Shown here: in pieces, positions 4,710 to 43,164 of the stretch
Layout: each line of letters begins with the position of its first letter
How positions within the stretch are numbered: the stretch's first letter is position 1
Assembly (NCBI RefSeq): GCF_044324785.1
Contig: NZ_CP172127.1
DNA: 64,000 nt
Source of the DNA: Escherichia coli
GTDB lineage: Bacteria > Pseudomonadota > Gammaproteobacteria > Enterobacterales > Enterobacteriaceae
Strand: one strand, 5' to 3'
Position numbers and translations under genes: made by a program
Notes under the pieces: model-generated
What the model saw: the letters and a program-made list of their open reading frames with translations, nothing else
What the model was told of the DNA's origin: nothing
Database searches by the model: none

Positions 4710-5355
4710 GCCGATGATGTGGCTGCTGGTTCGTGGCGTATGGGAAACGCTGGCAATGACCTTCGTATCCGGATTTTTTGGGTTTGTGATTGGTCTGCCG
4801 GTTGGCGTCCTGCTTTATGTCACGCGTCCGGGGCAAATTATTGCTAACGCGAAGTTGTATCGTACCGTTTCTGCGATTGTGAACATTTTCCGTTCTATCC
4901 CGTTCATTATCTTGCTGGTATGGATGATTCCGTTTACCCGAGTTATTGTCGGTACATCGATTGGTTTGCAGGCAGCGATTGTTCCGTTAACCGTTGGTGC
5001 AGCACCGTTTATTGCCCGTATGGTCGAGAACGCTCTGCTGGAGATCCCAACCGGGTTAATTGAAGCTTCCCGCGCAATGGGTGCCACGCCAATGCAGATC
5101 GTCCGTAAAGTGCTGTTACCGGAAGCATTGCCGGGTCTGGTGAATGCGGCGACTATCACCCTGATTACCCTGGTCGGTTATTCCGCGATGGGTGGTGCAG
5201 TCGGTGCCGGTGGTTTAGGTCAGATTGGCTATCAGTATGGCTACATCGGCTACAACGCGACGGTGATGAATACGGTACTGGTATTGCTGGTCATTCTGGT
5301 TTATTTAATTCAGTTCGCAGGCGACCGCATCGTCCGGGCTGTCACTCGCAAGTAA
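4702..5355 (+). CDS. metI: Methionine ABC transporter permease
   Basis: 217-aa hydrophobic ORF overlapping metN stop by 8 nt; recognised MetI. Confidence 0.95.
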
Positions 5356-5394
5356 CGTTCAACACAACATAAATAATTGAAGAAGGAATAAGGT

Positions 5395-6210
5395 ATGGCG
5401 TTCAAATTCAAAACCTTTGCGGCAGTGGGAGCCCTGATTGGATCACTGGCATTGGTAGGCTGCGGTCAGGATGAAAAAGATCCAAACCACATTAAAGTCG
5501 GCGTGATTGTTGGTGCCGAACAGCAGGTTGCAGAAGTCGCGCAGAAAGTTGCGAAAGACAAATATGGTCTGGACGTTGAGCTGGTAACCTTCAACGACTA
5601 TGTTCTGCCAAACGAGGCATTGAGCAAAGGCGATATCGACGCCAACGCCTTCCAGCATAAACCGTACCTTGATCAGCAACTGAAAGATCGTGGCTACAAA
5701 CTGGTCGCAGTAGGCAACACTTTTGTTTATCCGATTGCTGGTTACTCCAAGAAAATCAAATCACTGGATGAATTGCAGGATGGTTCGCAGGTTGCCGTGC
5801 CAAACGACCCAACTAACCTTGGCCGTTCTCTGCTGCTGCTGCAAAAAGTGGGCTTGATCAAACTGAAAGATGGTGTTGGCCTGCTGCCGACAGTTCTTGA
5901 TGTTGTTGAGAACCCAAAAAATCTGAAAATTGTTGAGCTGGAAGCACCGCAGCTGCCGCGCTCTCTGGACGACGCGCAAATCGCTCTGGCAGTTATCAAT
6001 ACCACCTATGCCAGCCAGATTGGCCTGACTCCGGCGAAAGACGGTATCTTTGTCGAAGATAAAGACTCCCCGTACGTAAACCTGATCGTGACGCGTGAAG
6101 ATAACAAAGACGCCGAGAACGTGAAGAAATTCGTCCAGGCTTATCAGTCTGACGAAGTTTACGAAGCAGCAAACAAAGTGTTTAACGGCGGCGCTGTTAA
6201 AGGCTGGTAA
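5395..6210 (+). CDS. metQ: Methionine-binding lipoprotein
   Basis: 271-aa ORF with lipoprotein signal/lipobox LVGCGQ; recognised MetQ. Confidence 0.95.
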   Translation: MAFKFKTFAAVGALIGSLALVGCGQDEKDPNHIKVGVIVGAEQQVAEVAQKVAKDKYGLDVELVTFNDYVLPNEALSKGDIDANAFQHKPYLDQQLKDRGYKLVAVGNTFVYPIAGYSKKIKSLDELQDGSQVAVPNDPTNLGRSLLLLQKVGLIKLKDGVGLLPTVLDVVENPKNLKIVELEAPQLPRSLDDAQIALAVINTTYASQIGLTPAKDGIFVEDKDSPYVNLIVTREDNKDAENVKKFVQAYQSDEVYEAANKVFNGGAVKGW

Positions 6211-6247
6211 TTTTTAGGCTGTTTCCACAATTTGTAATATCATTCAG

Positions 6248-6276
6248 GACGGGCGCTTGCCCGTCTTGTCATTTTT
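6248..6276 (+). terminator. Rho-independent terminator after metQ
   Basis: GACGGGCGCTTGCCCGTC hairpin followed by TTGTCATTTTT. Confidence 0.55.
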
Positions 6277-6327
6277 ACAAGCTCCTGATTCAATATTGAC
6301 GTTTTGATCATACATTGAGGAAATACT

Positions 6328-6732
6328 ATGCGTGCTTTACCGATCTGTTTAGTAGCACTCATGCTAAGCGGCTGTTCCATGTTAAGCAGATCCCCTGTCG
6401 AACCCGTTCAAAGCACTGCACCCCAGCCGAAAGCGGAGCCTGCAAAACCGAAAGCGCCGCGCGCCACGCCGGTCCGAATTTATACCAATGCAGAAGAATT
6501 AGTCGGCAAACCGTTCCGCGATCTCGGTGAAGTCAGTGGCGATTCTTGCCAGGCCTCCAATCAGGACTCTCCGCCGAGCATTCCAACCGCACGTAAGCGG
6601 ATGCAAATCAACGCCTCGAAAATGAAGGCCAATGCGGTATTACTGCATAGCTGCGAAGTCACCAGCGGTACGCCAGGCTGCTATCGTCAGGCTGTATGTA
6701 TCGGTTCTGCGCTTAACATTACGGCGAAATGA
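6328..6732 (+). CDS. rcsF: Rcs phosphorelay outer-membrane lipoprotein sensor
   Basis: 134-aa ORF, lipobox LSGCS, Pro/Lys-rich linker, four-Cys C-terminal domain; recognised RcsF. Confidence 0.93.
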   Translation: MRALPICLVALMLSGCSMLSRSPVEPVQSTAPQPKAEPAKPKAPRATPVRIYTNAEELVGKPFRDLGEVSGDSCQASNQDSPPSIPTARKRMQINASKMKANAVLLHSCEVTSGTPGCYRQAVCIGSALNITAK

Positions 6733-37478: not shown

Positions 37479-40169
<2,691 letters not shown>

Positions 40170-40199
40170 TGTGTTTACTGATATGAAAAGAGTTTAACA

Positions 40200-41024
40200 A
40201 TGCAGCAGTTACAGAACATTATTGAAACCGCTTTTGAACGCCGTGCCGAGATCACGCCAGCCAATGCAGACACCGTTACCCGCGAAGCGGTAAATCAGGT
40301 GATCGCCCTGCTGGATTCCGGCGCACTGCGTGTGGCGGAAAAAATTGACGGTCAGTGGGTGACGCATCAGTGGTTGAAAAAGGCGGTGCTGCTCTCTTTC
40401 CGTATTAATGATAATCAGGTGATCGAAGGGGCAGAAAGCCGCTACTTCGATAAAGTGCCGATGAAATTCGCCAACTACGATGAAGCGCGTTTCCAGAAAG
40501 AAGGCTTCCGCGTTGTACCACCAGCGGCGGTACGTCAGGGTGCGTTCATTGCCCGTAACACCGTGCTGATGCCGTCTTACGTCAACATCGGCGCATATGT
40601 TGATGAAGGCACCATGGTTGATACCTGGGCGACCGTCGGTTCCTGTGCGCAGATTGGTAAAAACGTCCATCTTTCCGGTGGCGTAGGTATCGGCGGCGTG
40701 CTGGAGCCATTACAGGCGAACCCGACCATTATTGAAGATAACTGCTTCATTGGCGCGCGTTCTGAAGTGGTTGAAGGCGTAATTGTCGAAGAAGGTTCCG
40801 TCATTTCCATGGGCGTATACATCGGTCAGAGCACCCGTATTTACGACCGTGAAACCGGCGAAATCCACTACGGTCGCGTTCCGGCGGGGTCTGTGGTTGT
40901 TTCAGGTAATCTGCCGTCGAAAGATGGCAAATACAGTCTTTACTGTGCGGTTATCGTTAAGAAAGTTGACGCGAAAACTCGCGGCAAAGTCGGCATTAAC
41001 GAACTGCTGCGTACCATCGACTAA
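40200..41024 (+). CDS. dapD: Tetrahydrodipicolinate N-succinyltransferase
   Basis: 274-aa ORF recognised as DapD. Confidence 0.96.
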
Positions 41025-41076
41025 AAATCAGTACACGGGCAGCATGACGCTGCCCGATTTTTTGCAGGGATGGATG

Positions 41077-41889
41077 ATGATCACACGCAGGCGTTTTTTA
41101 CAGGCAGCCGCCGCGACGTTAGCTGCCGGATCAAGCCTCAGCTATATGCATTATTGGGAACCTGGCTGGCTTGAAATAACCCATCACAGCATCAGCTTTT
41201 TTAAAGACAAAGCCCTACCTTTTAAAATTCTTTTTCTGGCAGATCTCCATTACTCCCGCTTTGTTCCGCTTACCTTGTTTTCAGACGCCATTAATCATGG
41301 AGTGGCACAAAAGCCCGATTTGATTCTGCTAGGCGGCGATTACGTATTGTTTGATATGCCGCTGAATTTTTCAGCCTTCAGTGACGTACTCTCTCCCCTT
41401 GCCAAATGTGCGCCGACATTTGCCTGTTACGGCAACCACGATCGCCCCGTGAGAACGGAGAAAAATCACTTAATTGGCGAGGCGTTAAAGACGGCGGGGA
41501 TCACGGTGTTATTTAACGAAGCCACGCTTATCTCCACTCAGAAGCAGCAATTTGAACTGGTTGGCGCAGGTGATTTATGGGCCGGGCAATGTAATCCACC
41601 CGGCGTAAATGACGCGAGTCTGCCACGGCTGATGCTGGCGCATAATCCCGACAGTAAAGAACGCCTGCGCGAAGAAAAATGGGATCTAATGCTTTGCGGT
41701 CATACTCACGGCGGGCAGCTCCACGTGCCGTTAATAGGCGAACCTTTTGCGCCTGTTGCCGATAAACGCTACGTCGCCGGGTTAAATGCCTTTGGCGAGC
41801 GGCAAATTTACACCACCCGCGGCGTGGGAAATTTGCATGGCTTGCGTCTGAACTGCCGCCCGGAAGTGACGATGCTGGAACTGATTTAA
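41077..41889 (+). CDS. yaeI: Tat-signal metallophosphoesterase YaeI
   Basis: 270-aa protein with twin-arginine signal (TRRRFLQAAAATLAAG) and calcineurin-like GDY/GNHD motifs; start trimmed from the 368-aa ORF that runs back into dapD. Confidence 0.88.
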   Translation: MITRRRFLQAAAATLAAGSSLSYMHYWEPGWLEITHHSISFFKDKALPFKILFLADLHYSRFVPLTLFSDAINHGVAQKPDLILLGGDYVLFDMPLNFSAFSDVLSPLAKCAPTFACYGNHDRPVRTEKNHLIGEALKTAGITVLFNEATLISTQKQQFELVGAGDLWAGQCNPPGVNDASLPRLMLAHNPDSKERLREEKWDLMLCGHTHGGQLHVPLIGEPFAPVADKRYVAGLNAFGERQIYTTRGVGNLHGLRLNCRPEVTMLELI

Positions 41890-41903
41890 CTGGAGATTCA
41901 ATA

Positions 41904-42614
41904 ATGGATTATTTTCTCGGCGGCTATATGTTGCTACATTGCCTGCCCGTTGAGGGGCTTCATCCGCAACTTAAAGGTAAACCACTGCTAACGTGCAGTA
42001 CCTGTTTTAATGAAAGTCTGCTTTGTGCCTGGTCTTACGCGTGGTTAGGTTCCGATAAAGACTCTCCTTATGATGGCAATATGTCACTTTACGAACATCT
42101 GGAAGCCACTTTTTTGCTTACAGACGAAGACAGGGAACAGATCCGCATCCGGGCAAATGATTGGTTCAATGAGGATAAAGTTGGCTGGGAAAGTATATTC
42201 ATGGATAAATCGACCGCTATTGAATATAAACAAAGTTTCTTTCCCCATATCGAGAATTGCTACCTTCTTGCAATCTATATCAGAGAACCGAATGTACAAG
42301 AGTTCTCCCTTTATCCATCCCATGATGGTATTGCTGCAAGGCTTCTTCGCAGGCAGCCTGAACGAAATGAAATGGATGAAAAGTTATTAGGTTACGATAT
42401 TCTGGGTCTGGAAATCGGCGGGCAGTTCCATACATCTCACTGCCATCCATTGTATAACGAACTCCACCAGCGCTTCGGTCTCACCCTCAATCAACACGGA
42501 CTTTATAACGAAATCCCGGACTGGCAACCGGTCGTGGACTATATGAACGACGACGCCACGGGATGCGAACCCGTCCCCTGGGGTATCGCCACAATAAAGC
42601 AGGTAATTTTTTGA
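41904..42614 (+). CDS. Hypothetical protein, unrecognised family (accessory ORF between yaeI and yaeH)
   Basis: 711-nt ORF filling an otherwise intergenic gap; GGAG Shine-Dalgarno 8 nt upstream of ATG; starts 14 nt after yaeI stop, same strand; AT-richer than neighbours; no signal peptide or TM segment evident; 7 Cys incl. CSTC and HTSHCH motifs. Confidence 0.72.
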   Translation: MDYFLGGYMLLHCLPVEGLHPQLKGKPLLTCSTCFNESLLCAWSYAWLGSDKDSPYDGNMSLYEHLEATFLLTDEDREQIRIRANDWFNEDKVGWESIFMDKSTAIEYKQSFFPHIENCYLLAIYIREPNVQEFSLYPSHDGIAARLLRRQPERNEMDEKLLGYDILGLEIGGQFHTSHCHPLYNELHQRFGLTLNQHGLYNEIPDWQPVVDYMNDDATGCEPVPWGIATIKQVIF

Positions 42615-42733
42615 TTTTTACGCCATGATAGAAGTCTGGAAGAAAAAGGCTTTCTGCGATCACAGTCGAGCCGAGCGGGCCAGGCCAAATGCTAAAATAA
42701 GCACAATTTACTGACTCATTTTGAGGTAACGCT

Positions 42734-43120
42734 ATGTACGACAATCTGAAAAGTCTGGGTATTACCAATCCTGAAGAAATTGATCGTTACAGCCTCCGGC
42801 AGGAAGCCAACAACGATATTCTGAAAATCTATTTCCAGAAAGACAAAGGCGAGTTTTTTGCCAAGAGCGTGAAATTTAAATATCCGCGTCAGCGTAAAAC
42901 GGTCGTCGCCGATGGTGTGGGTCAGGGTTATAAAGAAGTGCAGGAGATTAGCCCTAATCTTCGCTATATCATTGATGAGTTAGATCAAATCTGCCAGCGT
43001 GACCGCAGCGAAGTTGATCTTAAGCGTAAGATCCTCGACGACTTACGTCACCTGGAGTCAGTAGTAACCAATAAGATCAGCGAGATTGAAGCCGATCTGG
43101 AAAAACTGACGCGTAAATAA
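42734..43120 (+). CDS. yaeH: UPF0325 protein YaeH
   Basis: 128-aa ORF recognised as YaeH; GAGG SD upstream. Confidence 0.92.
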
Positions 43121-43132
43121 TGCCATTCTGTG

Positions 43133-43164
43133 GGCCGGGTAAAGTCTCACCCGGCTGTAATTTT
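43133..43164 (+). terminator. Rho-independent terminator after yaeH
   Basis: GCCGGGTAAAGTCTCACCCGGC hairpin followed by TGTAATTTT. Confidence 0.6.

Follow-up and report, generated by a model that had tools for sequence, protein, structure and literature searches.

A candidate Cys-His-Cys metal site in a protein of an undescribed family, the product of a gene at the yaeI–yaeH junction of a divergent Escherichia lineage

Introduction

Structural zinc sites built around a CxxC knuckle, as in treble-clef and zinc-ribbon proteins, belong to autonomous fingers of 20–40 amino acids. Other structural zinc sites are lineage-dependent, among them that in the lid of adenylate kinase and those distinguishing the C+ and C− forms of ribosomal proteins; in dispensable Zn sites of the structural kind, the adenylate kinase lid being an example, the ligands are lost in an all-or-none manner. 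Two Cys and one His are also the ligands in beta-carbonic anhydrases (PF00484; CxDxR...HxxC) and in cytidine/deoxycytidylate deaminases (PF00383; H/CxE...PCxxC). The subject of this paper is an open reading frame (ORF) coding for a protein of 236 amino acids (aa) and located between yaeI and yaeH in a 64,000-nucleotide stretch of contig NZ_CP172127.1 (RefSeq assembly GCF_044324785.1, deposited as Escherichia coli), called the window below. Its product carries a set of Cys and His residues that may bind a single metal ion and belongs to a family found in none of the libraries searched.

With the CxxC-knuckle sites the ORF protein shares a CxxC turn (C31, C34) combined with an H176-x3-C180 pair, as well as His/Cys swaps across its homologues. 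It differs from them in that the two halves of the ligand set (31–34 and 176–180) lie 142 residues apart in a 236-aa alpha/beta domain, and in that the first knuckle Cys is dispensable in its family or shifted to position 36; matches to zf-* families were sub-threshold only. The remark in the initial annotation that the Cys/His spacing is not that of a canonical zinc ribbon was therefore right. The likeness to the adenylate kinase lid and the C+/C− ribosomal proteins consists in all the ligands vanishing together while the rest of the protein remains conserved, but there is no kinship of sequence or fold, and the comparison is one of behaviour only. Beta-carbonic anhydrases and the deaminases resemble the ORF protein in the two Cys and one His, in a nearby invariant acidic residue (here E222), in size and in alpha/beta composition. 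Their motifs differ from the [C]xxC...HxxxC...E of the ORF family, and no Pfam, PDB-sequence or fold match connects them with it, although the ligand chemistry could still be similar.

Conservation of the Cys and His residues

The ORF is a genuine gene and not a chance reading frame, since it has 21 close and 727 distant homologues (profile search) and is under purifying selection, with a ratio of nonsynonymous to synonymous substitution rates (dN/dS) of 0.20 against the 94%-identical allele of Escherichia sp. MOD1-EC7003. Its product contains 7 Cys (3.0%) and 10 His (4.2%), the typical content in E. coli cytoplasmic proteins being roughly 1% and 2%, respectively. A signal peptide or lipobox at C13 was ruled out by the acidic n-region, the His at position −1 before C13 and the lack of conservation of C13 itself. 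As the protein is devoid of a signal peptide, it is predicted to be cytoplasmic and its Cys residues would thus be in a reducing compartment. AlphaFold2 (AF2), supplied with an alignment of 22 sequences, returned a confident alpha/beta model (predicted local distance difference test, pLDDT, of 90; predicted template modelling score, pTM, of 0.89).

The residue positions given in the initial annotation (Cys 13, 31, 34, 41, 119, 180, and 221, with the motifs C31-S-T-C34 and H176-T-S-H-C-H181) are correct, the first motif being encoded at 41994–42005. Their conservation was followed in two sets, one of 145 homologues reaching down to ~20% identity and one of 207 sequences. Among the Cys and His residues only C34 (93–95%), H176 (89–92%), and C180 (96–97%) are conserved throughout the family. 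C31 is present in 32–49% of the homologues, H179 in 36–54%, H181 in 42–59% (Asn being found there otherwise), and C221 in 14–28%, while C13, C41, and C119 are not conserved. The conservation by which the annotation had proposed to judge these positions thus holds for the first three, is confined to a subfamily for C31, H179, and H181, and is absent for C13 and C41. C31, H179, H181, and C221 co-occur in the subfamily containing the ORF protein: H179 is found in 37 of 45 members with C31 versus 15 of 100 without it, and C221 in 18 of 45 versus 2 of 100. Apart from the Cys and His residues, S32 is conserved in 87% of the homologues, and G163, G168, N196, G199, E222, and W226 in 92–99% (E222 in 92–94%, W226 in 98%).

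Coupled behaviour of C34, H176, and C180

Three kinds of observation link the family-wide residues to one another. The sole recurrent substitutions at these positions are of the ligand type, H176 being replaced by Cys in four members and C34 by His in two. Six members lack all three residues, yet retain N196, E222, and W226; they represent at least four lineages with less than 30% identity between them, and every one of the six has a relative with an intact triad at 31–45% identity (pairwise Fisher p for the joint loss 1e-9 to 1e-11, uncorrected for phylogeny). Finally, the 195 members with an intact triad differ in the position of a fourth Cys, which is C31, giving CxxC, in 100 of them and C36, giving CxC, in 32; one member has both Cys, and neither is present in 62. 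An all-Cys set comprising C34, C36, C176, and C180 is found in some members.

Coevolution, assessed by mean-field direct coupling analysis (DCA) of 207 sequences (effective number, Neff, 168; 24,114 pairs), points in the same direction. The pair 34–176 ranks 2nd, 34–180 7th, and 35–177 11th among the 24,114. A second, word-indexed search with the profile of the 145 homologues had yielded just 25 proteins, hence the use of 207 sequences. The pairs 181–221, 181–222, and 181–223 rank about 21–25, whereas 31–179 ranks 112th, and couplings are also seen for 163–196, 36–200, and 168–224. In total, 12 of the top 60 couplings link the segments 30–36, 163–181, 196–200, and 219–226, versus 1.3 expected (p = 4e-9). 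Other top couplings (120–233, 122–231, 125–230) fit strands of the AF2 model, which lends support to the model as well as to the coevolution method.

Being conserved (89–97%), interchangeable as ligands, and mutually dependent, the three candidates have properties expected of the ligands in a mononuclear Cys/His metal site. The His–Cys swaps together with the joint loss of all three residues argue for such a site over a catalytic dyad or a redox CxxC. Of the possibilities named in the initial annotation, i.e., zinc or iron binding or a redox function, the metal site is consistent with conservation, swaps, and joint loss as regards C34, H176, and C180, with C31 added in this protein; the participation of C13 and C41 was not borne out, and nothing favours the redox reading, since most of the family does without C31.

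The interpretation favoured here, with moderate confidence, is that the ORF codes for a cytoplasmic single-domain alpha/beta protein in which C34, H176, C180, and a variable fourth ligand bind one metal ion, most probably Zn2+, in a mainly structural role; binding, the identity of the metal, and its role are all read from sequence patterns. Zn2+ is the likely ion because the ligands are Cys and His and the protein is a predicted cytoplasmic one. The fourth ligand would differ between subfamilies and would be C31 in the ORF protein (CxxC...HxxxC). The ion would staple the N-terminal loop (residues 30–36) to the strand and turn formed by residues 175–181, close beside the invariant residues N196, E222, and W226, which form the only conserved patch of the family. 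In such an arrangement the site may organise the N196/E222/W226 pocket, and it would be this pocket, and not the metal, that carries a binding or catalytic function.

Extent, distribution, and genomic context of the family

An exhaustive profile search yielded 727 cluster representatives at E ≤ 1e-3, the full-length ones comprising about 215–260 aa (best 150 of the 727 representatives). Members are standalone, single-domain proteins, annotated as "hypothetical protein" wherever a source names them, and no extra domain was found in the two longest ones looked at closely (P0024 and P0058). The carriers, counted as one genome per species, are mostly Bacteroidota (Cytophagales, Flavobacteriales, Saprospiraceae, and others), and in addition four Acinetobacter species, Acidobacteria, Ignavibacteria, one clostridial genome, and one spirochaete.

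No match beyond chance was obtained for the protein, or for 22 or 145 homologues, in Pfam-A (2025 copy), NCBIfam 20, PHROGs v4, or PADLOC-DB 2.0; the chance-level matches were PPO1_DWL (E = 0.03), TriTu in 1 of 145 (E = 0.003), zf-DNL in 2 of 145 (E = 0.003), and Zn_ribbon_GRF in 1 of 145. PADLOC, a collection of anti-phage systems, gave nothing at E < 0.001, and no PHROGs phage family recurred. A search of the PDB with the family sequence profile returned nothing meaningful, and comparison of the fold of the model with solved proteins gave no structural match. To the extent that this could be tested, the family is undescribed, and no solved relative exists for its confidently predicted fold. 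In particular, the protein belongs neither to the thioredoxin-fold CxxC oxidoreductases, with C31 in only 32–49% of homologues and no thioredoxin or glutaredoxin Pfam match and no fold match, nor to the papain-like, NlpC/P60, or other Cys-His hydrolases.

The surroundings of the gene are equally uninformative. All-against-all BLAST and Pfam scans of ~50 loci revealed no conserved neighbour genes beyond within-genus synteny, and the Pfam families of the neighbours are miscellaneous across loci; the same lack of a recurrent neighbour, with TriTu in a single homologue, sets the family apart from polymorphic-toxin immunity proteins. In the four Acinetobacter species the homologue begins 3–4 nt after a cysG-like sirohaem synthase gene, downstream of serS (locus positions 4765–6700), a synteny specific to this genus and with no parallel elsewhere. 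An origin from a mobile element was dropped, no relatives having been found on plasmids, in phage genomes, or in IMG/VR. One distant homologue, on metagenome contig Ga0454598_0000001 (1–12714), lies within an element coding for a relaxase, a NikA-like protein, an excisionase-type helix-turn-helix protein, and an integrase, and is the sole indication that the family may be mobile. The genomic context yielded no clue to what the protein does in the cell.

The locus and the loss of the gene from E. coli

The features of the locus are collected in Table 1. The local gene order is glnD, dapD, yaeI, the ORF, yaeH, and then cdaR and degP on the minus strand. The stop codon of yaeI occupies 41887–41889 and the ATG of the ORF begins 14 nt beyond it; a similarly close spacing of the two genes is found in E. 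albertii and Pseudocitrobacter. There are no terminator-like sites between yaeI, the ORF, and yaeH, and terminator-like hairpins are located at 41036–41056 (after dapD) and 43133–43156 (after yaeH). By these features yaeI and the ORF probably form one transcription unit, which may also comprise yaeH. The G+C content of the ORF and yaeH is 42–45% (window 41900–43100) versus 50–55% for the surrounding genes. The N-terminus of YaeI, MITRRRFLQAAAATLAAGSS (window 41077–41140), is a twin-arginine (Tat) type signal, and a mechanically listed 368-aa ORF starting with TTG (40783–41889) over-extends yaeI into dapD.

Table 1. Coordinates of the ORF, its candidate metal-site segments, and adjacent features in the window
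Feature	Position	Strand	Remarks
Protein-coding ORF, 236 aa	41904–42614	+	ATG start at 41904; single-domain member of an apparently undescribed family
Shine-Dalgarno sequence GGAG	41892–41895	+	8 nt 5' of the ATG; read from sequence
T30-C31-S32-T33-C34-F35-N36 loop	41991–42011	+	C34 family-wide, C31 subfamily-specific ligand candidate
H176-T-S-H179-C180-H181	42429–42446	+	H176 and C180 family-wide ligand candidates; H179 and H181 subfamily-specific
N196	42489–42491	+	nearly invariant (96–97%); in the conserved cluster around the candidate site
C221-E222-P-V-P-W226	42564–42581	+	E222 and W226 nearly invariant, couple to H181
3' end of the ORF, surviving in ordinary E. coli as a scar	42584–42614	+	alignment and sequences
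yaeI	41077–41889	+	Metallophos phosphodiesterase with a twin-arginine signal; upstream neighbour of the ORF; annotation

A functional link of the ORF protein to YaeI, as its Tat chaperone or inhibitor, was considered and dropped. In Enterobacter sp. kpr-6 the ORF homologue lies straight after dapD and yaeI is absent (locus positions about 5890–6000), so the ORF is independent of yaeI; the idea is also contradicted by E. coli, which keeps yaeI without the ORF, and by the non-enteric members of the family, which have no Metallophos neighbour.

The ORF was found in none of the 5,424 matching complete RefSeq genomes of E. coli, in which yaeI and yaeH are adjacent. Homology between the window and these genomes picks up again inside the ORF, at 42564 or 42584: E. 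coli carries ATCGCCAGAATAAAGCAGGTAATTTTTTGA directly 3' of the yaeI stop codon, a sequence that encodes the nine C-terminal residues of the ORF protein and includes its stop. This remnant, corresponding to the last 31–51 nt of the ORF (window 42564–42614; codons I-A-R/T-I-K-Q-V-I-F-stop), is the only one found in the complete E. coli genomes. The retention of the 3' end after the yaeI stop codon indicates that E. coli proper lost the ORF by a deletion of ~695 bp, of which the yaeI–yaeH intergenic region is the scar. The gene is genuine but dispensable.

The window itself, judged by its flanks, represents a divergent lineage of Escherichia, the assemblies of which were submitted under the name E. 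coli, since the glnD–dapD–yaeI segment (37497–41889) shows at most 95.2% identity to any of the 5,424 complete E. coli genomes. The identical protein is encoded in hundreds of assemblies deposited as E. coli, and its context was the same in 24 of 24 contigs read. Syntenic homologues at the same junction are found in Escherichia sp. MOD1-EC7003 (94% protein identity), Pseudocitrobacter cyperus (62%), E. albertii (59%), and Enterobacter sp. kpr-6 (59%; no yaeI), the flanking proteins showing 87–100% identity in these comparisons. Against E. albertii the synonymous sites of the ORF are saturated (proportion of synonymous differences, pS, 0.75 versus 0.23–0.48 in the flanks), while against MOD1-EC7003 the ORF is closer than its flanks (pS 0.11 versus 0.23–0.32). 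With dN/dS of 0.14–0.20 and synonymous saturation, the divergence of the ORF is, by these measures, old and not fast. yaeI is unusually variable, YaeI being 78% identical to its MOD1-EC7003 counterpart versus 94% for the ORF protein and 98–100% for the flanks, and most E. coli yaeI alleles fall under the megablast threshold. The yaeI–ORF locus looks like a recombination mosaic. Split or truncated copies of the ORF (183 + 74 aa, 80 aa, 95–197 aa) occur in some assemblies of E. albertii, of Enterobacter, and of strains labelled E. coli; they could reflect ongoing pseudogenisation or be an assembly artefact.

Discussion

A structural role of the proposed metal ion is favoured because several lineages have lost the site as a whole, with the remainder of the protein still conserved, and because most members have four protein ligands. 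Several points weigh against it. Among the 62 of the 195 intact-triad members devoid of both C31 and C36, some have H181, and the rest are left with three obvious ligands and E222, which is the signature of a catalytic site (three ligands and water) and not of a structural one. The conserved Gly, Asn, Glu, and Trp residues seem to crowd around the site as they would around an active site, and the co-loss and DCA signals, uncorrected for phylogeny, come from a small number of events. Moreover, seven candidate ligands in this protein (C31, C34, H176, H179, C180, H181, and C221) leave room for a different or binuclear centre in its subfamily. The main rival is accordingly one in which the same residues form a catalytic mononuclear zinc (or Fe2+) site, with C34, H176, C180, and water as ligands and E222 as the general base, in an undescribed hydrolase, deaminase, or lyase. 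It draws on the members with only three ligands, on the 92–99% conservation of E222, N196, W226, and several Gly residues and their coupling to the ligand segments (181–222, 163–196, 168–224), and on the neighbours of the gene in Bacteroidota, often small accessory enzymes (GNAT, SDR, DinB-like, beta-lactamase). A metal essential for catalysis is, however, hard to square with the six members that lost all three ligands but keep E222, N196, and W226; most members supply a fourth protein ligand, C31 or C36, and neither Pfam nor the fold comparison links the protein to any Cys2His enzyme, which makes this alternative rather unlikely. Its most far-reaching version, in which the protein stands for an enzyme family not described before, its alpha/beta fold is new, and its active site is a Cys-His-Cys zinc centre whose fourth position is open or exchangeable and in which E222 serves as the catalytic base, is less probable still.

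The other explanations appear more doubtful than either. The ligand set of the enterobacterial subfamily (C31, C34, C180, C221, H176, H179, H181) might hold an iron-sulphur (Fe-S) cluster like that of mitoNEET or Rieske proteins (3Cys-1His or 2Cys-2His), or else a binuclear centre, with a redox or sensing function; the co-occurrence of C31, H179, H181, and C221 and the rank of the 31–179 coupling would fit this, but the co-occurrence may merely reflect one clade, two family-wide conserved Cys are too few for a cluster, and the motifs differ from the Rieske (CxH...CxxH) and CDGSH patterns, so that we regard it as improbable. Equally improbable is an orphan immunity or conflict protein, e.g., a toxin inhibitor, diverging in an arms race and using the Cys/His site as a mere structural staple. 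Such a protein could explain the 57–62% identity between enterobacterial genera versus 87–100% for the flanking proteins, the patchy presence and pseudogenised copies, and the one relative in a relaxase/integrase element, but no toxin or other conserved neighbour was seen in the ~50 loci, no Imm or PADLOC family was matched (the single TriTu hit being at chance level), none of the relatives is on a phage or plasmid, and the synonymous saturation and low dN/dS speak for old rather than fast divergence. The least probable is a protein without a metal, either with a Cys-His catalytic dyad, as in a cysteine hydrolase or transferase, or with a redox-active C31-x-x-C34 disulfide: the order C34...H176...N196/E222 is superficially like that of papain-type enzymes, but the swaps between ligand residues and the joint loss agree better with a metal site, and C31 is poorly conserved.

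If the favoured reading, a mainly structural metal site, is true, a site with a movable fourth ligand offers a natural experiment in the building, remodelling, and discarding of zinc sites, and the protein would define a new family with no fewer than 727 clusters at 50% identity, the majority of them from Bacteroidota. It would be a Cys/His site of familiar chemistry placed within a family and a predicted fold described in no library searched. Were the far-reaching catalytic version to prove true instead, the protein would be a metalloenzyme of a new kind that is common among Bacteroidota and that E. coli proper has lost by deletion. Without a known function, the practical impact stays limited. 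The ancestral enterobacterial gene whose loss left the scar at the yaeI–yaeH junction of E. coli lives on in divergent lineages of Escherichia, in some E. albertii, in Pseudocitrobacter, and in an Enterobacter, and could serve as a lineage marker.
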